Virus genome (UHGV): UHGV-0187309
Strand: one strand, 5' to 3'
Length of the DNA stretch: 44,350 nt
DNA from: a virus
In this document: piece after piece, positions 1,852 through 43,037 of the stretch
Position numbering within the stretch: the stretch's first letter is position 1
Layout: each line of letters begins with the position of its first letter
Translations under genes and position numbers: made by a program
Notes under the pieces: model-generated
What the model was told of the DNA's origin: nothing
Database searches by the model: none
Seen by the model: only the letters and a program-made list of their open reading frames with translations

Positions 1852-2487
1852 TTATACAGCCTTTTCCATCACTACCTCAGTCAAAGCCCTCTTGCATATC
1901 TCAGCAGGATTCCCGTTCGGCTTTATCCAGCTTTCAACGTCCTCTCTACTCAGTATCACCGGCATTCGGTCGTGGATGCTTCTCAGTTCCTCGGTTGCGT
2001 CCCGTGTGATTACCGCAAACACCGGGCAATTAACTCCGTTTCTCTCCTCGATCCTATACAACAGCCCAGCAAGCAGCGTAGATTCGGCTCCTTTCGGCTG
2101 TATCAGGTATTTATCGCCAACCTTCTTCTTTTTCCCGTCCGGACTCCTGAAATGCTCCCATTCAAAGTACCAACTGCTCGGAATTACGCATCTACTTCGG
2201 AACCATGAGTCCTTCCACATTTCCTTCTGGTCAGCCGTTTCGAGGCGGCAGTTCACGATTGGAGCATCGGTCGCGTCATGACTGAAACCCCAGAGCATCG
2301 GAAAAACTTCCATTCTTCCGTCCTTATTCGGTGCTAAAACCGCAGCAACATCAGTCGGACGCAGTTCACCGGACATAAACAGCGGTTTGCCGAGTTTTAC
2401 CATGATAGTATTCGCTAGCTCCAGTTTCTGTGCCCGTGTGATCAGCGGAGCGAACTGAGCAGGCTCTACATAGAAGCGTGTACACAT
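1852..2487 (-). CDS. SOS-response-associated peptidase (SRAP / YedK-HMCES family, abasic-site processing)
   Basis: 211 aa starting MCTRFYV (catalytic Cys2). Family landmarks NCRLET, WFRSRCVIPSSWYFEWEH, IHDRMPVIL. Confidence 0.85.
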   Translation of the reverse strand: MCTRFYVEPAQFAPLITRAQKLELANTIMVKLGKPLFMSGELRPTDVAAVLAPNKDGRMEVFPMLWGFSHDATDAPIVNCRLETADQKEMWKDSWFRSRCVIPSSWYFEWEHFRSPDGKKKKVGDKYLIQPKGAESTLLAGLLYRIEERNGVNCPVFAVITRDATEELRSIHDRMPVILSREDVESWIKPNGNPAEICKRALTEVVMEKAV

Positions 2488-2501
2488 AAGACCACGACCT
2501 T

Positions 2502-3059
2502 TCAGCCTTCGATCATTCTCAGCTTATAGTGTTTTCGGCAGAGTGCTGTATAACTCTCATTACCGCCGAGCTGTACCTGTTCTCCCTCTGTGACCATTTC
2601 ACCGTTCAGGAGTCTTGCATTGAAGTGCGCTCTTTTGCCGCACCAGCAGATGGTCTTGATCTGCTCAATATCGTCTGCAAGCTCCATGAGCCGCTGTGCG
2701 CCGGGAAACAGATGACTCTGGAAGTCTGTCCGCAGGCCGTAGCAGATAACTGTGATGCCATGAAAATCCACAAGATCACTGAGCTTGTCTATCATTTCAG
2801 GTGACAGGAACTGCACCTCGTCAACGATGATACAGTCATAATGCTCACCATTATAGTCAGCAAGGAAGTTTTCAGCAAACTCGCAGGGTTCTTCAAGTCC
2901 GATGCGGGATTTTAGGTTCTTCGCACCGTCCCTGTCCTCGCATCTCGGCTTCAGCAGAAGCACTTTTTTGTCTCTCTCATAGTAGTTATATCGAACCATA
3001 AGCGCATTGGCGGTCTTGGAGCTGCCCATTGCGCCGTATCTGAATATCAGTTTTGCCAT
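2502..3059 (-). CDS. tdk: thymidine kinase
   Basis: 185 aa. P-loop GAMGSSKT, DEVQFL, C-terminal zinc/lasso region CWCGKRA...LCRKHY. Confidence 0.92.
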   Translation of the reverse strand: MAKLIFRYGAMGSSKTANALMVRYNYYERDKKVLLLKPRCEDRDGAKNLKSRIGLEEPCEFAENFLADYNGEHYDCIIVDEVQFLSPEMIDKLSDLVDFHGITVICYGLRTDFQSHLFPGAQRLMELADDIEQIKTICWCGKRAHFNARLLNGEMVTEGEQVQLGGNESYTALCRKHYKLRMIEG

Positions 3060-3064
3060 CTGCC

Positions 3065-3937
3065 TTACTCCTCATCGTCCTCGTGCATGACTTCATATCG
3101 CTTGATATCTCTCTTGCTTGCAATGGAAGCGGGTTCAAGGATACCGAGAACGCGCCCGATCAGAGTGACATTGTCATATTCTGTGAATGTCATGGTATCA
3201 TACTTATCATTAAACGATACCAGACCTTCTTCCTCATATATCTTTATGTATGTACTGTTTCCAACCATGAAAGCGCCGACCTCATCGTATTGCAGCTCCG
3301 GACAGCCGGGATACTTCTCCACAAGAACAAGGTCGCCGTCATGATACTCAGGCTCCATACTGTCGCCGTTGACAGGAAACACAAGGTCTGCCTGCCGTAT
3401 TGCTGTGTTCGTATTCGGATACAGATAGATCGGTGTTCCGTTGTCCTCAAACTCCGCCCCGCCGTCAAAGCCTGCTGCAAGCCCCTTGTCGCAGAGTGTC
3501 AGTTTGATGATCTCCGGGAAGCTGCCGACAGTCTCTGCCGCTTCAAGCGAGGATAGCAGACTGTCCATTGCAAGCTGGTGCGGATACGACAGTCCACGGT
3601 ATCTCTCTACCATAGACTTTTCCTTATCAGTATAGGTATCTTGCTTGTTTTCGATGCCATATAGTTCATACAGCGTGATACCAAGTGCGTCACATAGCTT
3701 AGGAACAACGCTGAAATCCGGGCGGGTTCTTCCGTTCTCCCAGTTACTGATAGCATTTGAGGTCACGCCGATTTTTTCTGCAATCACTTTCTGATCTAAT
3801 TTTAGACGCTCCCTGTAGTATTTGATGCGACCGCCAACCGCGTGAGCGTCCTTACGGTGGGCAGGATCAGAGATGTTACTCTTAATATCCTTGCCTCCCT
3901 GTGAGACTGAGATATTCGGTTTCTTACGCTGTTTCAT
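3065..3937 (-). CDS. CI-like phage repressor (XRE HTH + S24/LexA-type autopeptidase)
   Basis: HTH IKYYRERLKLDQKVIAEKIGVTSNAISNWENGRTRPD; S24 motif FPVNGDSMEPEYHDGDLVLVEK. Start placed at the second ATG (3937) because GGAGAG lies 7 nt upstream; the track ORF extends to 3955. Confidence 0.85.
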   Translation of the reverse strand: MKQRKKPNISVSQGGKDIKSNISDPAHRKDAHAVGGRIKYYRERLKLDQKVIAEKIGVTSNAISNWENGRTRPDFSVVPKLCDALGITLYELYGIENKQDTYTDKEKSMVERYRGLSYPHQLAMDSLLSSLEAAETVGSFPEIIKLTLCDKGLAAGFDGGAEFEDNGTPIYLYPNTNTAIRQADLVFPVNGDSMEPEYHDGDLVLVEKYPGCPELQYDEVGAFMVGNSTYIKIYEEEGLVSFNDKYDTMTFTEYDNVTLIGRVLGILEPASIASKRDIKRYEVMHEDDEE

Positions 3938-4097
3938 TACAAAGCTCTCCTTCAAGAATGTATGGGATAGTCAATCCTCAAAACGAACAAATATTCTTAT
4001 TGAAATCTGTGCAACCCTACAAAGTTTATCAAAGACTTTTCAACGCTGAAAACGTTAGAAATGCGAAATTTGGCGTAGGCATTGCATCTTTGATCAC

Positions 4098-4126
4098 ATT
4101 ATAGCACACAATCGGTGTTTTGTCAA
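4098..4126 (-). promoter_or_regulatory. consensus sigma70 promoter for the repressor operon
   Basis: Reverse strand: TTGACA (4126..4121), 17 nt, gTGcTATAAT (hexamer 4103..4098). Confidence 0.55.
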
Positions 4127-4131
4127 TACAA

Positions 4132-4147
4132 AATTGCACTTGCAATT
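4132..4147. promoter_or_regulatory. candidate operator: perfect palindrome AATTGCA-ct-TGCAATT
   Basis: 16-bp dyad overlapping the -35 of the rightward promoter and lying 6 bp from the -35 of the leftward one. A related half-site, ATTGCA, lies at about 4081..4086. Confidence 0.35.
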
Positions 4148-4168
4148 CGTTTGACGGTGTGATATAAT
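4140..4168 (+). promoter_or_regulatory. sigma70 promoter for the rightward (lytic-side) operon
   Basis: TTGCAA (4140..4145), 17 nt, TGaTATAAT (extended -10; hexamer 4163..4168). About 200-nt leader before ATG 4370. Confidence 0.5.
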
Positions 4169-4369
4169 AGCAATGTCGGTATTCCGCCTACAGGAAAATG
4201 AGACCGAAGGCTGGTGCAGTGTGTCCGTCTTAAGGTGTGTGACAGGACAGACTGCCGGTCAGAGTACCGACAACTTCGCCATCAACCCACTTCGCCACGA
4301 TAGATATACAGAACAATAGAATGGAGCTAATGTTGGAAATACCATAAGTTGCGAAACAGGAGGGCGTAA

Positions 4370-6298
4370 ATGACTATATATCTTGATAGAGGACCGTTTC
4401 TCACCATTCCCGACAAGCTGCATTCGGGGCAGTACAGAGTGATCCGCAACCCCGACTGGCACGGAGTACTGCCGGAGATCGTGTCCTTCACCGATTTTCT
4501 CAAATGGAATTACACACTGGAGTATGGTCAGTATATCCGCAAATTGCACTACTACCACCAGCTTCCGCTGCCGTGGGTCGTTCCACAGGATGCCGAGATA
4601 GAAACTGTCATCATCGAGGAAGGCAGATATGACCGCATTGATCACAATTCCTTTGATATGTATGTGATATGCGATGTCGTGTTCGAGATGAACGGCTGCC
4701 GGCAGTGCCAGAAGTATATCGTACACGGCTTTTACTGCTCTTACGGCGGTTCAGACTTTCTGTGCGGTGCGGAGCTCTACAATGGTCAGTTTATCCGGCT
4801 GAACAATCCCTTAGATGAGTTTCTGGTTCCCATCCTTTCAAAGAAAGAATTTGCAAGCATTGCACAAGCAATCATCGACCACTACTATTCATACAAATCG
4901 AATTATCCCTGCCGCATCAATACTGCTTCAATTGCAAAGGCAATGGGTCACGATATAAAGTATGCCAGACTGTCAAAAAACGGAAATGTCAAGTCCAAGC
5001 TGATCCTGGACAAGCGGGATACGACCGTCTATGATAAGGAATACAAAGCTGTCAAAATGCGGATCGACAGTCCTACGATCCTTGTGGACGAGTCATTGGA
5101 GGAGGATGAAGCGCAGAACGCCATTATTCATGAGTGCGTTCACGCTTACCTTCACAACCTCTTCTATGAGCTGCAGAGCTACTATCGGAAAATGGTCGGC
5201 AGGAAGATGCCGGAGTTCAATGACTACTTCTATTCCAAGACGCAGCGTAGCTGCCTGAAATGGATGGAAACACAGGCAAATGCCATCCCACGCTTTATTC
5301 AGATGCCGGAGGAGCAGGCATCCGATGTCATCCTGAACTTCTTCGAGCGACTCCCCGGAGAGCCTGACTGGGACGATTACAGAGAACTGATCGACCTTGT
5401 GAAATGGAAGTTCGGAGTATCCCGCAATGCTGCGAAGAAGCGTATCATTGAGCTTGGCTGGCCGGAGGTGCGCGGTGTGTATGTCTACAACACCACAGGA
5501 TATGTTGAGGACTACGATGTAGAGCTAAGATTCCCGCAGGACTATACCTATACACTGTCATTCCGCCAAATCTCTGATGTGTTTGCATCCTGCGAGACCT
5601 TCGCAGAGCTTGTCCGTTCCAAGAAGTTCATCTATCTGGACGGTCATGTTGTGATCAACAGCGACAGGTATATCCGCAAGGAACACGGCTTAGCTATGGG
5701 CTTGACAGAGTATGCTAGACACCACATGGCAGAGTGCTGTCTGGATTTCAAGCGTATCTACGCAGAATTCGACTACAGCTATACCTATGGCGAGCTACAC
5801 AAGGATGACCTGACCGAGATCACGGCCGAAAACCGTTCGTTCAGCGATGAACAGCGAAAGAAGATCCGCATGGCAATGTATGAGATCACAGAAGAAAACT
5901 ATAAACTGACCGTTCCTTCAGATGTCAACGAATTCGGCAAGGCGGTGCGTTTCCATATGGAGAGATGCGGTCTCACCTCGGATCTGGTTGCAGACCGCAG
6001 CGGCATGGGTGTGAACACTGTCAATAAGATGCGCAGTGGCAAGAGAGTGAAGCTCGAAACAGTGCTAGCTTTTTGTGTCGCTTTGGAGCTTGAAGAGTCG
6101 TTCCGCATTGACCTTATGCAGAAAGCGAAGGTTGATTATGATATGAGCAATCCTGCCCATCGGCTCTATGTCACGATCTTTGAGCTGATGCCGAAGGCAA
6201 ATGTCTTTCAGATCAACGATCTGCTGAAGGCAGAAGGCTTTACGCCGTGGACGAGGGACTGCGAGGAAAAGAAGCGGTATGCTAAGAAAAGTATGTAA
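4370..6298 (+). CDS. ImmA/IrrE (M78)-like HExxH metallopeptidase domain fused to a C-terminal XRE-type HTH
   Basis: 642 aa, AGGAGGG RBS. IIHECVHAYLH in the middle. C-terminal HTH FGKAVRFHMERCGLTSDLVADRSGMGVNTVNKMRSGKRVKLETVLAFCVAL. N-terminal ~230 aa unrecognised. Confidence 0.65.
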   Translation: MTIYLDRGPFLTIPDKLHSGQYRVIRNPDWHGVLPEIVSFTDFLKWNYTLEYGQYIRKLHYYHQLPLPWVVPQDAEIETVIIEEGRYDRIDHNSFDMYVICDVVFEMNGCRQCQKYIVHGFYCSYGGSDFLCGAELYNGQFIRLNNPLDEFLVPILSKKEFASIAQAIIDHYYSYKSNYPCRINTASIAKAMGHDIKYARLSKNGNVKSKLILDKRDTTVYDKEYKAVKMRIDSPTILVDESLEEDEAQNAIIHECVHAYLHNLFYELQSYYRKMVGRKMPEFNDYFYSKTQRSCLKWMETQANAIPRFIQMPEEQASDVILNFFERLPGEPDWDDYRELIDLVKWKFGVSRNAAKKRIIELGWPEVRGVYVYNTTGYVEDYDVELRFPQDYTYTLSFRQISDVFASCETFAELVRSKKFIYLDGHVVINSDRYIRKEHGLAMGLTEYARHHMAECCLDFKRIYAEFDYSYTYGELHKDDLTEITAENRSFSDEQRKKIRMAMYEITEENYKLTVPSDVNEFGKAVRFHMERCGLTSDLVADRSGMGVNTVNKMRSGKRVKLETVLAFCVALELEESFRIDLMQKAKVDYDMSNPAHRLYVTIFELMPKANVFQINDLLKAEGFTPWTRDCEEKKRYAKKSM

Positions 6299-6311: not shown

Positions 6312-6337
6312 AGGAGGCTTTCGAGCCTCCTTTTTTT
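6312..6337 (+). terminator. rho-independent terminator
   Basis: AGGAGGC tttcga GCCTCCT followed by TTTTTT, 14 nt after the stop at 6298. Confidence 0.7.
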
Positions 6338-6555
6338 ATGCCCTGAAATATTTTCATGAAGCCCCCAGAAAAAATGGGGGCGATTTGCGTTTTTGAAATA
6401 GTTTAGAGACAGAATGTTCATAGAATATCCATTTAATTTAGATGATATGAACAAGTGAAGATGATATATCAAAGTTGAGATAAGCACAGTGCATAAAAAG
6501 CAGCCCCCATTTTTTATGTATGTAAAAGAAGATTCGGATATGTTATGATATAGAC

Positions 6556-6721
6556 ACGGTCAAGGACAGGCACCACCTTCCAAGACTGAAACACCACAAT
6601 GCCGGATGCATACGGCAGAGGATGTTCATATGATATCTGAACAGAATGCCATAGGTATACCCTGTGGTCGGAAGCCGATGTCATATGTCTACTCTGTGCT
6701 ATGCATCCGGCTATTTTTTTT
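6556..6721 (+). ncRNA. candidate small RNA (extended -10 promoter to long-hairpin terminator)
   Basis: TGtTATGAT at 6541..6549. About 110-nt imperfect hairpin closed by GCCGGATGCATA (6601..6612) / TATGCATCCGGC (6700..6711), with inner CAGAG/CTCTG and CATATGA/TCATATG pairs, then TATTTTTTTT. No plausible ORF inside (longest is 13 codons). Confidence 0.3.
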
Positions 6722-6946
6722 GCCGCGGCATTCGGAGCATGGCAATTAGATCATTACATTTGTTAGTCAGGGCGCGCACTGGCGGACAGATGCTCATAGC
6801 GGAAATAACATCACGATTTGGAGTCTGTATAGACTGACAAGGTGTATTTCGTGTGGACATCGTCCCCTGCGTGCCTTTTTCTCTGGGACAGCAGTCGCGT
6901 TATGGGCATCTGCCGCTTGGTGTGTTCCTTGCAGAAAGGAACGATT

Positions 6947-7669
6947 ATGGAAAACGCAAATGTTCAGAATGCTGCCGCTATCACCGATAAGACCACCCTC
7001 GGCGAACTGCTTGCAATGCTTGACCTCGCTGATAAGGCAGGCAAGATGCCGACACCGAGAGAACTGTTTGAGACTGCCGGTTCGCCGATAGCCGATATGA
7101 ATGGCTGCACTCTCTTCAGCAACGGCTTCGCCATCTATCAGAATGTCACTGGGCGCACTGTTGTCTGGCTGCCGTACTGCAAGAGCTTCACCTATTACTT
7201 CGGCAAGCTCCGTGATTCCGAGAAAGACACGCTGACAGAGACCTATGAGCTGCCGGATGGATTTCTGGAAACACAGCCGTGGGTGATCGCAGTAACACTG
7301 ATCGGCGACCATCGTGTGGAGGCAAACAGCATGAACCGCACCGGCAGCCGCAAGGATACCACAGATTATGACAGCGCCGATAACGGCGATAAAGACGGTG
7401 ATGCAGAGGAGGCTTTGGCAGATCCGTATCGCAGGGCATTCAACTGGTATGACGGACGCATGGGCGAGAATCCGCAGGATGCCGTGGAGCGCAGAGAGAC
7501 ACGCGAGGAGATGCTTGCAGACATGACGGACAAGCAGCGTGAAGCCTTTATTATGTACTTCAGGGATGGTATGACGCAGGAAGAGATTGCTTCATATATA
7601 GGGGTAAGCCGTGATTCCATAAATGACAGGCTTGAAGGTGCTTTGAAAAAAGCAAAAAAATATTTTTAG
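6947..7669 (+). CDS. sigma-70 region-4-like HTH protein (possible phage sigma/transcription factor)
   Basis: Start at Met36 of the track ORF (AAAGGAA RBS). C-terminus TDKQREAFIMYFRDGMTQEEIASYIGVSRDSINDRLEGALKKAKK resembles sigma-70 region 4. N-terminal 190 aa unrecognised. Confidence 0.55.
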   Translation: MENANVQNAAAITDKTTLGELLAMLDLADKAGKMPTPRELFETAGSPIADMNGCTLFSNGFAIYQNVTGRTVVWLPYCKSFTYYFGKLRDSEKDTLTETYELPDGFLETQPWVIAVTLIGDHRVEANSMNRTGSRKDTTDYDSADNGDKDGDAEEALADPYRRAFNWYDGRMGENPQDAVERRETREEMLADMTDKQREAFIMYFRDGMTQEEIASYIGVSRDSINDRLEGALKKAKKYF

Positions 7670-10601: not shown

Positions 10602-13487
10602 GTGGTGATTTTATTGAGCAGACGTGTACTTTCCATCGACTTAGAGACCTATTCGGATGTAGACCTCCCGAACTGCGGTGTGTACCGCTATGTTGAGGGA
10701 GATTTCCATATCCTGCTGTTCGCATATGCATTTGACGATGAGGAGACAAAATGCGTGGATATGGCCTGCGGGGAGCAGCTCCCGGCAGAGGTCGTGGATG
10801 CGCTGCAGGATGACAGTATTATCAAATCGGCATGGAACGCACAGTTTGAGCGTACCTGCCTTTCAAAATATCTCGGTACGCAGATTTCTCCGGACTCGTG
10901 GCAATGCACGATGGTATGGGCGGCATCGCTTTCACTTCCGCTGAAGCTGGCAACGGCTGCACAGGCACTGAAAACTGCACAGCAGAAGGACGCTGTCGGT
11001 GAGCGTCTTATCCGTTATTTCTCTCTGCCCTGTAAGCCCACCAAAGCAAACGGCGGCAGAACAAGAAATCTGCCGGAACACGCCCCCGAAGACTGGAAGC
11101 TGTTCAAAAGCTACTGCATACAGGACGTGGAAACCGAGCGGGATATCCGCCGCAGGCTTGAAAAGTTCCCCCTGCTCCCGCAGGAATGGGACTACTACCA
11201 CATGGATCAGCGGATCAATGATCGCGGTATCCTGATCGACAAAGAGCTTGTGCAGCAGGCTATTATCTGCAATATGGCAATGTCCGAAGAAATGACAAAA
11301 CGTGCATACGCTCTGACAGGACTTGAAAATCCGAATTCCGTATCACAGCTCAAGGGATGGCTTGAGGAGCGTGGCATTGAGGTGGATTCCCTCGGCAAAA
11401 AGAATGTCGCTTCTCTTATCACAGACCTCGACAGGCACAGCGCAGACGGTGAGGCTCTGGATATGATGAAGCTGCGGTTGCAGATGGCAAAGTCCTCTGT
11501 GAAAAAGTATCAGGCGGCAGAGAGATACATCTGTCAGGACGGCAGGGCGCACGGACTGTTTCAGTTTTCCGGAGCTCAGCGAACACAGCGCTGGTGTCTT
11601 ACCGGCGATCATGAAATACTGACAGATAAAGGCTGGCTCAGGCTTGATAATTGGCAGGGCGGTAAGATTGCTTGTTGGAATCCTAATCAGGAAATGGTCT
11701 CGTTCCAGAAAGCGAACGTATTGTGCTTTGAATATGACGGTCCTATCTACCGCTATGAGGACAAACGGATCGATCAGATCAGCACGCCGGATCACAAAAT
11801 GCGTGTAAAGAAACGGTATAACGGCGAGTGGACGGATGACACTGTTGGCAATATGGAAAAGTATCGTCCTTCTATTCCGTTTACCGGACGCAGACAAACG
11901 ATGCCCGGCTTGGAGCACGCAGAACTGAGGGTACTGGTGATGACGCAGGCTGACGGCAGCTATAAAGAAGATGGAATGCTCTGCTTCCATTTCAAGAAGA
12001 AAAGGAAAATAGAACGGTGCAAACATCTGCTCAGACAGGCGGGCATTTATTTCACAGTGAATGAATGCAGGACAGATGGAACAACGCAGATCAAGATTCC
12101 TTCCCGTGAGCAGCCGATGTATCTAAGAATGTTTCATAACAAGACATTTGGAATGTGGCTTCTCGATGAAAGCCCGGATGTTTTCTTTGATGAGCTTCGG
12201 TATTGGGACGGATCGCAAAGCGCCAAAAACAGTATCCAATATACCACAACGAACAAAGTGAATGCCGATATTGTTCAGGCTTTTGCTCATACAAGTGGTC
12301 GCTGTGCAAAAATGAAAACGGTCATCCGGGATAAAGAACACCCGAATTGGAGCGATGCATACTATCTCGATATATGGCTCACTCCGAAAAACTGTCATGA
12401 AATCAGAGTGAAGCCGACTATCTCGCAATTCAGCGGCAAAATATACTGTGCTGAAACCCCAACCGGATACTTCCTTGTAAGACGTAATGGTAAAGTGTGG
12501 GTAACAGGAAACAGCGGGCGCGGCATTCAATTACAGAACCTGCCGCAGAACCACATCTCTACCCTCGATGAAGCAAGAGAACTTGTCAAAATGGGCTGCT
12601 TTGACATGATCGAAGCACTGTACGGCAATACGCCGGATATCCTGTCACAGCTTATCCGCACGATGCTCATTCCGAAGGACGGCTGTGAATTTATCGTGGC
12701 AGACTTCTCCGCCATTGAAGCGAGAGTACTTGCGTGGCTTGCCGGAGAACAGTGGCGGCTCGATGCCTTCAAGCGTGGCGAGGATATTTACTGTGCATCC
12801 GCATCGCAAATGTTCGGTGTTCCGGTCGTGAAGCACGGCATCAATGGAGAACTGCGGCAGAAAGGCAAGGTCGCTGAGCTTGCCTGTGGTTACGGAGGTG
12901 GCAGCGGTGCGCTGATCTCTATGGGTGCGCTGGATATGGGACTGAAAGAGGATGAACTTCCCGACATCATTTCAAGCTGGCGCGATGCAAACCCGGAGAT
13001 CGTGAAATTCTGGTATGCCGTGGAGAAAGCGGCGATCGAAACAGTCAAGGACCACGCGGAAAGAACGGTCGGCAGGATCGGTTTTCAGTTCTCTGCAAAT
13101 ACACTGTGGATCGTGCTGCCGTCCGGGCGCAGACTTGCCTACATCAAGCCGAGGTTACAGCCGAACCGTTTCGGGCGTATGGCGCTGACCTTTGAAGGAC
13201 TCGGTGCAAACAACAAATGGACGCGCGGTGAGACATACAGCGGCAAGCTGACGGAGAACATCACACAGGCGACCGCCCGTGACCTGCTTGCAGAGGCAAT
13301 GCACCGAATGGAGCTTGCGGGACTTGACATAGTCGGTCATGTGCATGATGAGGTCATTTTGGAAGTGCCGAAAAGACAATATACGGTCGATGATGTGTGC
13401 AATATCATGAATCAAAATCCGAGATGGGCAGACGGTCTGCCCTTATCATCTGCCGGATATACCGGCAATTACTACTTCAAAGACTGA
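10602..13487 (+). CDS. family A DNA polymerase (3'-5' exo + pol) interrupted by an intein
   Basis: Exo motif LSIDLETYS. Pol motif A IVADFSAIEARVLAWLAG, motif B RQKGKVAELACGYGGG, motif C GHVHDEVILEV. The real start may be TTG 10614 (AGGTGGTGA RBS). Confidence 0.9.
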   Translation: MVILLSRRVLSIDLETYSDVDLPNCGVYRYVEGDFHILLFAYAFDDEETKCVDMACGEQLPAEVVDALQDDSIIKSAWNAQFERTCLSKYLGTQISPDSWQCTMVWAASLSLPLKLATAAQALKTAQQKDAVGERLIRYFSLPCKPTKANGGRTRNLPEHAPEDWKLFKSYCIQDVETERDIRRRLEKFPLLPQEWDYYHMDQRINDRGILIDKELVQQAIICNMAMSEEMTKRAYALTGLENPNSVSQLKGWLEERGIEVDSLGKKNVASLITDLDRHSADGEALDMMKLRLQMAKSSVKKYQAAERYICQDGRAHGLFQFSGAQRTQRWCLTGDHEILTDKGWLRLDNWQGGKIACWNPNQEMVSFQKANVLCFEYDGPIYRYEDKRIDQISTPDHKMRVKKRYNGEWTDDTVGNMEKYRPSIPFTGRRQTMPGLEHAELRVLVMTQADGSYKEDGMLCFHFKKKRKIERCKHLLRQAGIYFTVNECRTDGTTQIKIPSREQPMYLRMFHNKTFGMWLLDESPDVFFDELRYWDGSQSAKNSIQYTTTNKVNADIVQAFAHTSGRCAKMKTVIRDKEHPNWSDAYYLDIWLTPKNCHEIRVKPTISQFSGKIYCAETPTGYFLVRRNGKVWVTGNSGRGIQLQNLPQNHISTLDEARELVKMGCFDMIEALYGNTPDILSQLIRTMLIPKDGCEFIVADFSAIEARVLAWLAGEQWRLDAFKRGEDIYCASASQMFGVPVVKHGINGELRQKGKVAELACGYGGGSGALISMGALDMGLKEDELPDIISSWRDANPEIVKFWYAVEKAAIETVKDHAERTVGRIGFQFSANTLWIVLPSGRRLAYIKPRLQPNRFGRMALTFEGLGANNKWTRGETYSGKLTENITQATARDLLAEAMHRMELAGLDIVGHVHDEVILEVPKRQYTVDDVCNIMNQNPRWADGLPLSSAGYTGNYYFKD
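11595..12512 (+). mobile_element. 306-aa intein with LAGLIDADG-like homing endonuclease domain inside the DNA polymerase
   Basis: Extein junctions RTQRW|CLTGDHEILTDKGW ... GKVWVTGN|SGRGIQLQNLPQN. Block B STPDHKM. DOD-like motifs LRVLVMTQADGSY and FFDELRYWDGSQ. Removing it restores the contiguous RW-SGRGIQLQNLP polymerase motif. Confidence 0.8.
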
Positions 13488-39897: not shown

Positions 39898-40371
39898 ATG
39901 GCTCAGAGAGGCAGAAAACCGACGCCGACAGCAATCAAGGAACTGGAAGGCAATCCCGGAAAACGACCGCTGAATGATGCAGAGCCGAAGCCGGAACGCA
40001 AGGCACCGCCCTGTCCGAAGTGGCTGGAGCCCGAAGCAAAAAAGGAATGGCGCAGGCTGTCAAAGCAACTGGAGCAGATTGGTGTGCTGACCGAGGTCGA
40101 TCAGGCGGCATTCGCATCCTACTGTCAGGCATACGCACGATGGAAAGAAGCCGAGGAATTCATGACCCAGCACGGCACGATCGTAAAAACAAAATCAGGT
40201 TACTGGCAGCAGGTTCCGCAGGTATCCATTGCGCAAACTTATCTGAAGATCATGAACAAGATCGCAGAGCAGTTTGGCCTGACCCCGGCGGCAAGAAGCC
40301 GTATCACTGCCGGCGCAGATATGAAAAACGCTGCCGTTGACGATATGGATGAACTTCTCGGAGGTGGCTGA
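39898..40371 (+). CDS. terS: terminase small subunit (P27 family)
   Basis: MAQRGRKPTPTAIKELEGNPGKRPLN...PKWLEPEAKKEWRRL...FGLTPAARSRI. AAGGAGTG RBS. Confidence 0.85.
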   Translation: MAQRGRKPTPTAIKELEGNPGKRPLNDAEPKPERKAPPCPKWLEPEAKKEWRRLSKQLEQIGVLTEVDQAAFASYCQAYARWKEAEEFMTQHGTIVKTKSGYWQQVPQVSIAQTYLKIMNKIAEQFGLTPAARSRITAGADMKNAAVDDMDELLGGG

Positions 40372-43037
40372 TGGCGAGAACGGCAAAGGCAAGAGAAAGA
40401 CCTGCCAACTATCCGAAACTGAAGGATTATAAACCGACACGCTTTATGCTGCCGGAATCGCACTACGATGCGGCAAAGGCTGACCGAGCTGTGCGGTTCA
40501 TCGAGAATCTCTGCCATACCAAAGGACGCTGGGCAGGCAAACCGTTCTGGCTGCTTCCGTGGCAGGAACAGATCATCCGGGATATTTTCGGCATCGTCAA
40601 AGAGGACGATATGCGGCAATTTCGTACCGCCTATGTCGAAATTCCAAAGAAAAATGGGAAGCAGCTTGCACTGGATACACCGATCCCGACTCCGCAGGGA
40701 TTCACCAATATGGGAGATCTGAAGGTCGGAGATACAGTATTCGATGAAAACGGCATTCCGTGCCATGTGGTTGCGAAAAGTCCTGTGGATGATACAGAGC
40801 AAGCCTACAAGCTGACCTTCAAGGACGGCACCTCGATCATTGCCGGGGAAAGGCATCTGTGGAACTGTCAGTATATTTACGGCAAACGCAAGGATGTTCT
40901 CTGGACGACCGGCGAGATCTATCGCAGGACAACGGAATACAGACAGCGTTTTTCCGACAGACCACAGACAAAGCGGGATTCCCTTATCCGAATTCCGGTG
41001 TGCGGTGTCCTTCAGACAGAAGCGGCAGTTTTACCGATTGATCCGTATCTGTACGGCTACTGGCTCGGAAACGGTAATGTGACCATGCCGGAGATCACTG
41101 TTCGGACGGAGGATGTCGAGGATATCATCTCGAATATTCCGTATAAGGTACACAACCGTTATCCGCAGAAATGCGGCGGCAGTGAGATCATAAAGTACAA
41201 TGAACTGAAAGCAGTACTACTTGACAGCTTCCGTGAAAAGAAGATCCGACCAGAATATCTGAGGGCATCCGCAGAGCAGAGATGGGCATTACTGCAAGGG
41301 CTTATGGATTCGGACGGCTGTATCGGCGAACGCAAAGGGCAAAGTGTGTATGTCACAACGCTGCGAGAGCTGGCGCTTTCCGTCAGAGAACTGCTGTGGT
41401 CACTCGGCATCAAAAATGCAGTGAAATGTGAGCCTTCTACACGGCATGGGTGGCCGACCGGCGAGATTTTGTATATCGTCCGTTTTACAACCTTTGATGG
41501 CCAACCGACATCAAGGCTTAAACGCAAAAATACACGCACACAGGCGCGGTTAAAGGAAACTCGCTCCTGTTTTCATTATCTGCTGGATATTCAACCTGTA
41601 AATCATCCTGTAAAAATGCAGTGCATTCAGGTGGACAGTCCGAGTCACCAATATCTCGCAGGACCGTCATTTGTGCCTACGCACAACAGTGAGCTTGCAG
41701 CGGCAATTGCACTGTATCTGCTCTACGCCGACAACGAGCCGTCTGCTGAGGTCTACGGCGCTGCTGCTGATCGTGGGCAGGCATCCATTGTATTCGATGT
41801 CGCCAAAAGAATGGTTGAGATGACACCGGCACTTCTGAAACGCTCAAAAATCATGGCGGCGACAAAGCGTCTGGTGAATTACAGTAATGTTGGCTTTTAT
41901 CAGGTGCTTTCAGCGGAAGTCGGTACAAAGCACGGATTGAATGTATCCGGTCTGGTTTTGGATGAACTTCATGCCCAACCGAACCGCAGCCTTGTGGATG
42001 TTCTCACAAAGGGTTCCGGTGATGCCCGTACTCAGCCGCTGTACTTCCTGATCACAACCGCCGGAACGGATCGCAACAGCATCTGCTACGAGTATCACAC
42101 GAAAGCAAAAGATATTCTGGACGGCAGGCGCATTGATCCGTCCTTCTATCCTGTGATCTACGGCTTGAACGATGATGACGACTGGAACGCAGAGGAGTCA
42201 TGGTATAAGGCAAATCCCTCGCTCGGATACACTATCGCCATCGACCGAGTCCGCGATGCTCACCGGGAAGCCCTTACAAATCCCGCTGAAGAAAATGTAT
42301 TCCGTCAGCTGAGGCTTGACCAGTGGGTAGGCAGTGCGGTGGCATGGATTCCGGAGCATATCTACGACAGGGGCAATCTTCCGATCGACCTCGAAAAGCT
42401 CCGGGGACGGGAGTGCTACGCAGGTCTTGACCTATCCAGCACATCGGATATCACGGCATTTGTGCTGGTGTTCCCTCCGCTGCATGACGGCGAGAAATAC
42501 ATCGTTGTCCCGCACTTCTGGCTGCCGAGAGAAACGCTCGATTTGCGAGTACGGCGAGACCATGTTCCCTACGATGTATGGGAGCGCATGGGATTATTTC
42601 ATATCACCGAGGGCAATGTGGTCGATTACAATTTCGTGCGGAAAACGATCAACGAGCTGCACACGATGTACAACATCAAGGAAATTGCTGCCGACCGCTG
42701 GAATGCCACACAGCTTATCACAGACCTTGAGGGAGACGGATTTACCGTTGTTCCGATGGGTATGGGCTTCAAGGATATGTCCCCGCCGATGAAGGAACTG
42801 TACAAGCTCATACTCGAGGGGCAGTTTATCCACGGCGGCAACCCTGTACTCCGCTGGATGGCAGGAAATGTGGTCGCTGAAATTGATGCAGCGGAGAACA
42901 TCAAACCAAGTAAAAAGAAAAGTACAGAAAAGATTGACGGTATCGTGGCATGGATCATGGCACTTGACCGCTGCATCCGCCACGAAATGCAGGGCAGTGT
43001 CTATGACGAACCCGGCCACGATCTTGTGGTCATCTGA
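40371..43037 (+). CDS. terL: terminase large subunit (Terminase_1 type) interrupted by an intein in the Walker A loop
   Basis: Exteins join as EIPKKNGK|SELAAAIALYLLYADNEPSAEVYGAAADRGQA. Downstream LVLDELHA (Walker B) and a nuclease domain. 546 aa without the insert. Confidence 0.92.
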   Translation: MARTAKARERPANYPKLKDYKPTRFMLPESHYDAAKADRAVRFIENLCHTKGRWAGKPFWLLPWQEQIIRDIFGIVKEDDMRQFRTAYVEIPKKNGKQLALDTPIPTPQGFTNMGDLKVGDTVFDENGIPCHVVAKSPVDDTEQAYKLTFKDGTSIIAGERHLWNCQYIYGKRKDVLWTTGEIYRRTTEYRQRFSDRPQTKRDSLIRIPVCGVLQTEAAVLPIDPYLYGYWLGNGNVTMPEITVRTEDVEDIISNIPYKVHNRYPQKCGGSEIIKYNELKAVLLDSFREKKIRPEYLRASAEQRWALLQGLMDSDGCIGERKGQSVYVTTLRELALSVRELLWSLGIKNAVKCEPSTRHGWPTGEILYIVRFTTFDGQPTSRLKRKNTRTQARLKETRSCFHYLLDIQPVNHPVKMQCIQVDSPSHQYLAGPSFVPTHNSELAAAIALYLLYADNEPSAEVYGAAADRGQASIVFDVAKRMVEMTPALLKRSKIMAATKRLVNYSNVGFYQVLSAEVGTKHGLNVSGLVLDELHAQPNRSLVDVLTKGSGDARTQPLYFLITTAGTDRNSICYEYHTKAKDILDGRRIDPSFYPVIYGLNDDDDWNAEESWYKANPSLGYTIAIDRVRDAHREALTNPAEENVFRQLRLDQWVGSAVAWIPEHIYDRGNLPIDLEKLRGRECYAGLDLSSTSDITAFVLVFPPLHDGEKYIVVPHFWLPRETLDLRVRRDHVPYDVWERMGLFHITEGNVVDYNFVRKTINELHTMYNIKEIAADRWNATQLITDLEGDGFTVVPMGMGFKDMSPPMKELYKLILEGQFIHGGNPVLRWMAGNVVAEIDAAENIKPSKKKSTEKIDGIVAWIMALDRCIRHEMQGSVYDEPGHDLVVI
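40662..41687 (+). mobile_element. 342-aa intein (apparent class 3, Gln at position 1) with LAGLIDADG endonuclease domain
   Basis: QLALDTPIPTPQGF... block A. GERHLW (Trp two residues after the block B His). LYGYWLGNGN and LLQGLMDSDGCIG (LAGLIDADG pair). MQCIQVDSPSHQYLAG (block F Cys). VPTHN|S at the C-terminal junction. Confidence 0.78.

Follow-up and report, generated by a model that had tools for sequence, protein, structure and literature searches.

The locus analysed here lies on the viral genome UHGV-0187309, a stretch of 44,350 nucleotides (nt) that we call the window; its coordinates are used throughout. The genes of the window, which include those for DUF2800, Enc34 single-stranded DNA-binding protein, PolA, SNF2 helicase, D5 primase, NrdD, methylases and TerL, are those of a phage with replication and packaging functions. 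No nucleotide similarity between the window and deposited phages was found. The best reading of the locus is that of an immunity region in a temperate phage of Ruminococcus flavefaciens, with a switch of more than one tier. It holds two divergent genes, one for a CI-like repressor (3065-3937, - strand) and the other for a protein of 642 amino acids (aa) (4370-6298, + strand). The 642-aa product is a predicted zinc metalloprotease with the ImmA/IrrE/CapP fold that a linker connects to an XRE-type DNA-binding helix-turn-helix (HTH) domain; it will be called the M78-HTH protein.

Five structural parts can be told apart in this protein by means of an AlphaFold model with a mean predicted local distance difference test score (pLDDT) of 78. 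An N-terminal α+β domain (aa 1-150, 4370-4819, +), modelled as a helix and a four-stranded sheet, gave weak NTF2-like or IcmL-like hints only. It is followed by the M78 peptidase (aa ~151-370, 4820-5479, +), which contains HECVHAYLH at aa 254-262 (5129-5155) and WMETQAN at aa 298-304 (5261-5281), and by a β-rich domain (aa 371-463) with an invariant C456. A disordered linker of about 55 residues (aa 464-519, 5759-5926, +), with pLDDT below 50, then leads to the XRE HTH domain (aa 520-629, 5927-6256, +), a helical C-terminal domain with the five-helix, lambda-repressor-like fold. The model resembles solved M78 members. The original prediction had placed an M78/ImmA-type HExxH domain ahead of an XRE HTH, and this order is borne out by motif conservation across homologues, by the fold of the model and by a marginal pass of the Pfam M78 model (PF06114, 22.1 bits against a cut-off of 22, E=1.4e-4); three Pfam HTH models scored below their cut-offs on the protein. 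The unrecognised N-terminus, given there as 230 aa, shrinks to about 150 aa, as the modelled peptidase fold starts near residue 155 and the Pfam match starts late.

Across 24 aligned homologues, with identities as low as 22%, H254, E255, C256, H258, H262 and Q302 are invariant and E300 nearly so. The conserved motifs, HECVHxxxH and WMExQAN (the latter within WMETQANAIPRFIQMP at aa 298-313), correspond to the ImmA/IrrE signature. HExxH is kept in 137/137 full-length representatives and ExQAN in 100/137, in a set found without motif bias; counts from loci retrieved with the HECVH pattern were circular and were replaced by this set. These data bear on the possibility that the M78-like domain senses a ligand or a metal, as in the HTH-M78-like regulators of PrpR/RamB type, the protein being a plain, non-proteolytic transcription factor for the early operon. 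Fusion to an HTH is typical of transcription factors, and the invariant C256 and C456 could bind a metal or a cluster. However, the domain order is the reverse of that in PrpR, and the catalytic Glu and ExxAN are strictly kept across about 1000 clusters, which is the pattern expected of an active peptidase. We thus consider a non-proteolytic regulator very improbable.

The protein matches phrog_4031, annotated as "unknown function", over most of its length (E=1.2e-76, aa 138-623 against profile positions 121-622 of 626), and no model of NCBIfam or PADLOC matches it. A profile search of 1.84 billion representative proteins gave 951 clusters (50% identity) at E<=1e-30, most of them of 600-650 aa and matching from end to end. 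Close relatives come from Ruminococcus flavefaciens and other rumen and gut Oscillospiraceae, and distant ones from phi-SsUD.1-type prophages of Streptococcus sanguinis, S. suis and S. gallolyticus, from Lactococcus, Butyrivibrio and Bacilli, and from a "Ca. Heliusvirales" Ruminococcus phage. All the family records that were found are labelled hypothetical protein, and no publication on the family was found in the literature searched. In two human gut contigs (L276, 579-2126; L277, 506-2053; loci other than that of the window carry L numbers) an open reading frame (ORF) for a large serine recombinase forms an in-frame fusion with residues 378-471 of an M78-HTH gene that is 94% identical. The breakpoint coincides exactly with the invariant Y471, at the start of the disordered linker; another mobile element seems to have inserted into the gene there.

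The CI-like repressor has 290 aa, with an XRE HTH at aa 38-98 and an S24 autopeptidase domain, and its start codon is likely the ATG at 3937. Pfam finds HTH_3 (E=2e-15) and Peptidase_S24 (E=3e-13) in it, and the transcriptional repressor family phrog_4 matches it with E=1e-37. That the repressor carries an S24 autopeptidase of its own, as had been predicted, is supported by the Pfam match and by residues read from the translation, where an Ala155-Gly156 site and the dyad of Ser193 (in GDSM) and Lys232 appear as in the LexA/CI class of S24 proteins.

Both genes start from promoters placed back to back, which a promoter scan bears out as originally described. PL (4098-4126, -) consists of TTGACA (4126-4121), a 17-nt spacer and TGcTATAAT (to 4098), matching the consensus at 12/12 positions plus the TG; PR (4140-4168, +) consists of TTGCAA (4140-4145), a 17-nt spacer and TGaTATAAT (to 4168), with 10/12 plus the TG. 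The 13 bp between the -35 hexamers (4127-4139) were correctly given as well. When TTGACA-N14-TGnTATAAT was searched with up to 2 mismatches, 5 sites were found in the 44-kb window against 0.24 expected by chance, PL being the sole site with zero mismatches. Both promoters are present in all close relatives, PL is also kept in relatives with another type of repressor, and GTGTGATATAAT of PR is kept in 13 or more relatives.

The -35 hexamer of PR is overlapped by a candidate operator, AATTGCA-CT-TGCAATT (4132-4147). This is an imperfect palindrome and not the perfect 16-bp one that had been claimed, since its 7-bp arms flank a central, non-complementary CT. Among phages with CI HTH domains 92-96% identical and near-identical recognition helices, the left arm is variable; in L005 the sequence is AAATACA-CT-TGCATTT, which amounts to one symmetric double change. 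Further operator-like palindromes were sought and set aside, as the 4 sites with up to 3 mismatches in the window are not above chance (3.04 expected). Two such sequences lie inside the 642-aa ORF, at 4858-4873 (3 mismatches) and 4930-4945 (2 mismatches). On the opposite side, a perfect inverted repeat of 8 nt, ATCAAAGA/TCTTTGAT (4028-4035 and 4087-4094), encloses most of the cI leader of about 135 nt; the block CTACAAAGTTTATCAAAGACTTTTCAAC in this region is kept across relatives, and L001 has another inverted repeat of 11 nt there.

Between PR and the 642-aa ORF lies a non-coding leader of 200 nt (4169-4369), kept in 28 distinct variants. Several of its blocks are nearly identical in L001, where the homologue of the 642-aa protein is 60% identical. 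A small Cro-like ORF within it was considered (a 48-aa ORF at 4173-4319, and shorter ones) and rejected, as relatives have lost the starts and carry indels of lengths not divisible by three. The 5' domain of the leader (4175-4271, +) is a predicted folded RNA, supported by covariation and conservation. Its helix P1 joins 4175-4184 with 4262-4271, and its hairpin P3 (4224-4247) presents a conserved GGUGUG loop (4234-4239). In an unfitted MAFFT alignment of 27 variants, 92% of the cells are paired against 88.0 +/- 0.6 in shuffles (0/500), 24 cells show double changes against 10.1 +/- 2.5, and slid-register controls give 30-53% pairing. Alignment-free folds of single sequences place GGUGUG in a hairpin loop in 23/28 variants, on at least 6 different stems, and form P1 in 21/28. 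The minimum free energy z-score of this domain in the window is -2.78; the domain alone stands out, the fold of the whole leader not being exceptional (z=-1.47).

Downstream of this domain, two near-invariant direct repeats, ACTTCGCCA (4273-4281 and 4289-4297, +), precede a conserved block (4346-4369, +) made of AAGTTGCGAAAC, an inverted near-copy of the ACTTCGCCA repeat, then of the Shine-Dalgarno sequence AGGAGGGCG and the start codon. RNAalifold pairs the repeats with 4346-4366, so that predicted helices sequestering the Shine-Dalgarno sequence can be drawn. A search against Rfam, at gathering thresholds and at E<=10, gave no gathering-level match in the window, the best E-value in the leader region being 5.1. 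In a covariance-model search, only the Ruminococcus clade with the divergent S24 CI gave matches to the leader. The leader motif GCCATCAACCCANTTCGC and a relaxed form of it were also searched in viral and metagenome contigs; most exact matches were due to chance, in unrelated high-GC coding DNA, and the real ones belong to Ruminococcus-type loci only.

On the other side of the gene, the terminator scan found an intrinsic terminator (6312-6338, +), AGGAGGCT-TTCG-AGCCTCCT followed by T7, in a segment 94-98% identical in L001, L012 and L090, though their proteins are about 60% identical. Because of this strong terminator, the 642-aa gene is taken to be monocistronic, PR transcribing one gene only. 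The gene had been described as standing in the cro position. Its geometry agrees with that description; the 200-nt leader before the ORF and the strong terminator after it do not. A lambda-type Cro is an HTH protein of about 60-80 aa, encoded by the first gene of the lytic operon, that binds the same operators as CI. The locus differs in having a product of 642 aa, a monocistronic gene and no conserved small ORF in the leader.

After the terminator follow about 650 nt of non-coding DNA, which are 77-99% identical among relatives and more conserved than the protein. Within them, at 6599-6720 (+), lies a predicted rod-like RNA of about 120 nt, closed by GCCGGAUGCAUA/UAUGCAUCCGGC and followed by a U-tract. 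All of 25 variants (25/25) fold as one long hairpin, with dG of -44 to -62 kcal/mol; in the inner helix 5 pairs show double changes and 93.3% of cells are paired, against 21-38% in slid registers, values that come from related sequences with the structure derived from the same set. The core of this RNA is 96% identical in L114, L122 and L127, about 300 nt after the gene, where the protein is only about 24% identical; in these three loci a ParA-like gene follows it. It has no gathering-level match in Rfam, the best being rli53 (E=0.53, 18 bits against a cut-off of 70). A putative extended -10, TGtTATGAT (6541-6549, +), stands ahead of the RNA, and TGcTATAAT precedes it likewise in L232. The rod-like RNA could be an attenuator of the operon that comes next or a discrete small RNA.

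The first gene past the non-coding gap (6947-7669, +) encodes a sigma-70 region-4-like protein (Pfam Sigma70_r4_2, E=7e-10). In at least 52/122 loci a homologue of it follows the M78-HTH gene at a distance of up to 3 kb, most often across a gap of 300-600 nt. Ahead of it, the non-coding block at 6747-6804 (CACATTTGTTAGTCAGGGCGCGCACTGGCGGACAGATG...) is 93-96% identical in L001 and L090 (protein about 60% identical) and present in L091 and L232, and may serve the early operon as promoter or operator. Close behind the terminator, AAAAAATGGGGGC (6369-6381) pairs with GCCCCCAG just upstream in a terminator-like hairpin (6361-6381), or alternatively, with 13 perfect bp, with GCCCCCATTTTTT about 120 nt downstream (6503-6515); the AT-rich stretch between AAAAAATGGGGGC and GCCCCCATTTTTT holds two AGATGATAT repeats.

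Comparison of related loci indicates whether the two divergent genes belong together. L004 and L084 carry 642-aa proteins that are 94-96% identical beside CI proteins whose HTH domains are 45% identical and whose linkers are 38-43% identical. Conversely, L086 and L200/L232 share the same CI and leader, with family members only about 25% identical. In these comparisons CI and the 642-aa protein assort independently, and the leader travels with the CI/promoter module and not with the protein, since the same CI and leader stand before members so distant. In L200 (3524-3717) and L232 (6391-6585), the leader RNA is found before a distant member (about 25% identical) with the recombination boundary at the start codon. 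The regulatory gene beside the family varies too. The divergent HTH_3-S24 CI occurs in all the Ruminococcus-clade loci (15 or more) and in some streptococcal ones, and a small divergent XRE gene adjoins many family loci. In L008 (protein 86% identical), L010, L011, L013 and L100, a non-homologous winged HTH-S24 (LexA-like) gene lies directly upstream on the same strand. In other loci the neighbour is an HTH-M78 fusion or a WYL protein, or no regulator lies close by, and members also occur at element borders beside defence or cargo genes, without a cognate repressor nearby.

One explanation that these data put to the test is a trans-acting anti-repressor. The M78 domain would specifically cleave the neighbouring CI, as a second route of inactivation, either RecA-independent or reinforcing, so as to lock the lytic state, and the HTH would act like Cro at shared operators. 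M78 proteases do characteristically cut adjacent XRE repressors (PMC6868357, PMC13228613), the gene lies opposite CI under a promoter with an overlapping palindrome, S24 repressors recur beside the family, and ICESt1 and ICESt3 likewise pair a cI-like S24 repressor with an ImmA-like protease (PMC3234194). However, recognition of CapP type is highly partner-specific (PMC13228613), and CI and protease do not co-vary here. The locus has no separate, co-transcribed cognate XRE repressor as in the M78 class, the neighbouring CI being divergent, S24-bearing and not co-varying with the protease. Moreover, CI already possesses a complete S24 apparatus for self-cleavage, a strong terminator separates the gene from the lytic genes, and no similarity was found between the HTH domains of CI and the 642-aa protein, so that a shared operator specificity is unsupported. 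We therefore regard the anti-repressor as rather unlikely. A second, cognate route to CI cleavage, one of two options in the original prediction, finds no support in the comparative data, in which 94-96% identical proteases go with CI proteins 45% identical, the same CI goes with proteases about 25% identical, and many members have no neighbouring repressor.

The independence from the local CI would also fit a substrate located elsewhere. The protease could be aimed at XRE regulators of the host or of foreign elements, such as CapH-like or ImmR-like repressors of other prophages, of integrative and conjugative elements (ICEs) or of defence operons, resulting in cross-induction of cohabiting elements or altered host defence in early infection. 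The members at element borders beside defence or cargo genes, with no cognate repressor nearby, agree with this, as does the Listeria protein MpaR, described as an ImmA-like protease that acts on the repressors of two elements (PMC6872733). Yet such a target leaves unexplained the fused HTH, the conserved downstream non-coding module and the sigma-like partner, and PADLOC has no match. We consider it quite improbable.

The other option in the original prediction, a protease-repressor fusion acting as the lytic-side regulator, appears to fit better than CI cleavage, because the HTH is fused behind a disordered linker, a sigma-like gene recurs downstream and pairing with non-homologous S24 repressors recurs as well. 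On this basis we tentatively propose, as a real possibility short of a likelihood, a cascade in which an S24 repressor gates a DNA-tethered metalloprotease regulator that acts between SOS sensing and the sigma-like early operon. CI would repress PR through the palindrome over its -35, and upon DNA damage CI would cleave itself and PR would fire. The leader would tune the level of the 642-aa protein, possibly because its repeats, which contain CGCC, pair with the Shine-Dalgarno region. Through its HTH, the M78-HTH protein would then bind phage DNA, the most plausible site being the conserved non-coding 650 nt ahead of the sigma-like operon, and its protease would inactivate an XRE-type DNA-binding module. 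The most economical substrate would be its own HTH tether, cleaved in cis or between protomers, with CI as an alternative substrate. Such a protein would follow the logic of ImmA plus ImmR in a single chain, analogous to LexA but with a metalloprotease, and would act as a second checkpoint, gated by a signal, which comes after SOS sensing and before the sigma-like and replication genes are expressed. We favour this cascade because M78 regulators cleave neighbouring XRE repressors and the XRE module is here fused, because S24 gating is recurrent, and because the gene is insulated from, but followed by, the non-coding region and the sigma-like gene.

Several points weigh against this cascade. 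If PR is fully repressed in lysogens, the protease would be barred from a sensor role there. Terminator read-through, and not a separate promoter, may drive the early genes. Since many family members have no adjacent repressor, S24 gating is not universal, and the leader, being confined to one clade, is not needed for the function of the family. The covariation within the leader was obtained from closely related sequences, the same from which its structure was derived. As to the helices that would sequester the Shine-Dalgarno sequence, they show no covariation in the leader variants, their pairs being invariant or broken, and three variants break them.

The M78-HTH family stands at the regulatory hinge of prophages of Ruminococcus, Streptococcus, Lactococcus, Butyrivibrio and Bacilli, among them phi-SsUD.1-type elements with tet and erm genes. 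The wiring of a protease-HTH fusion to an S24 repressor suggests an induction circuit with two checkpoints. In its protease domain the protein resembles IrrE and CapP, which are activated by single-stranded DNA (ssDNA). A broader proposal, which we think unlikely, would make the 642-aa protein the founder of a class of repressors that cut themselves by a metalloprotease, uniting ImmA and ImmR in a single polypeptide as a zinc counterpart of LexA. With the two structured RNAs, not described before, as an upstream translational leader and a downstream rod-like terminator or small RNA, it would form the master decision module of a prophage lineage very widespread in gut, rumen and oral Firmicutes (Heliusvirales-like and phi-m46.1/phi-SsUD.1-like, including antibiotic-resistance carriers).

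Elsewhere in the window, cI is directly followed on its own strand by a thymidine kinase gene (2502-3059, -) and a gene for an SOS-response-associated peptidase (SRAP; 1852-2487, -), both of which (1852-3059) are probably cargo expressed in lysogeny. The ORF of the family-A DNA polymerase (10602-13487, +; 961 aa), in which the Pfam match spans aa 683-814 only, contains an intein-like insert (CLTGDHEILT...), and TerL (40371-43037, +) carries a LAGLIDADG_3 domain (aa 303-369). Inteins or homing endonucleases seem to be present in both genes.

Switches known from the literature searched use either an S24 repressor or an ImmR/ImmA pair, and the two types exclude each other in pneumococcal prophages (PMC12637031). 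In the characterised M78 systems (ImmA/ImmR, IrrE/DdrO, CapP/CapH), the protease cuts an XRE repressor from a neighbouring gene, the trigger being ssDNA, RecA or redox signals (PMC6868357, PMC13228613). The locus shares with ImmR/ImmA of ICEBs1 and of ImmAR-type prophages the functional coupling of an M78 zinc metalloprotease (HExxH ... E..AN) to an XRE HTH module in a mobile element's immunity region. There, however, the two are separate proteins, their genes being transcribed together with that of the integrase on the lysogeny side, and S24 is absent from the repressor, whereas here a single 642-aa chain with a C-terminal HTH and additional N-terminal and β-rich domains is encoded on the side opposite to an S24-bearing CI. 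IrrE (PprI), which acts on DdrO in Deinococcus, and CapP, which acts on CapH in CBASS and other defence operons, are proteins of about 280 aa with a peptidase-HTH-like-GAF arrangement and a separate substrate; in the 642-aa protein no GAF domain was recognised, and sequence identity to them is only 13-14%.

ICESt1 and ICESt3 were described in 2011 as the sole characterised elements in which a cI homologue coexists with an ImmR/ImmA pair (PMC3234194). They share with our locus a metalloprotease gene adjoining a cI gene, but encode three separate small proteins (arp1, cI-like; orfQ, ImmA-like; arp2, ImmR-like), with orfQ co-transcribed with arp1, instead of divergent genes and a protease-HTH fusion in a phage. 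As regards LexA and lambda CI, the left-hand gene of the locus is a true member of their class. The 642-aa protein would share their logic, that is, a DNA-binding domain, a linker and a protease able to sever them in one polypeptide, but it has a metalloprotease in place of the Ser-Lys dyad and the reverse domain order, and its self-cleavage is proposed by analogy. With lambda Cro it has in common that it is the first and only gene product from the promoter opposing the repressor gene and that its HTH is of XRE type; it differs in being ten times larger, in its structured 200-nt leader, in the terminator that follows, in its protease domain and in lacking sequence similarity. The locus departs from these systems in the fusion of M78 followed by HTH, the two extra domains, the position of the gene opposite an S24 CI, and the two flanking RNA elements without an Rfam match, the leader and the RNA at 6599-6720, which are candidates for new families of cis-regulatory or small RNAs.

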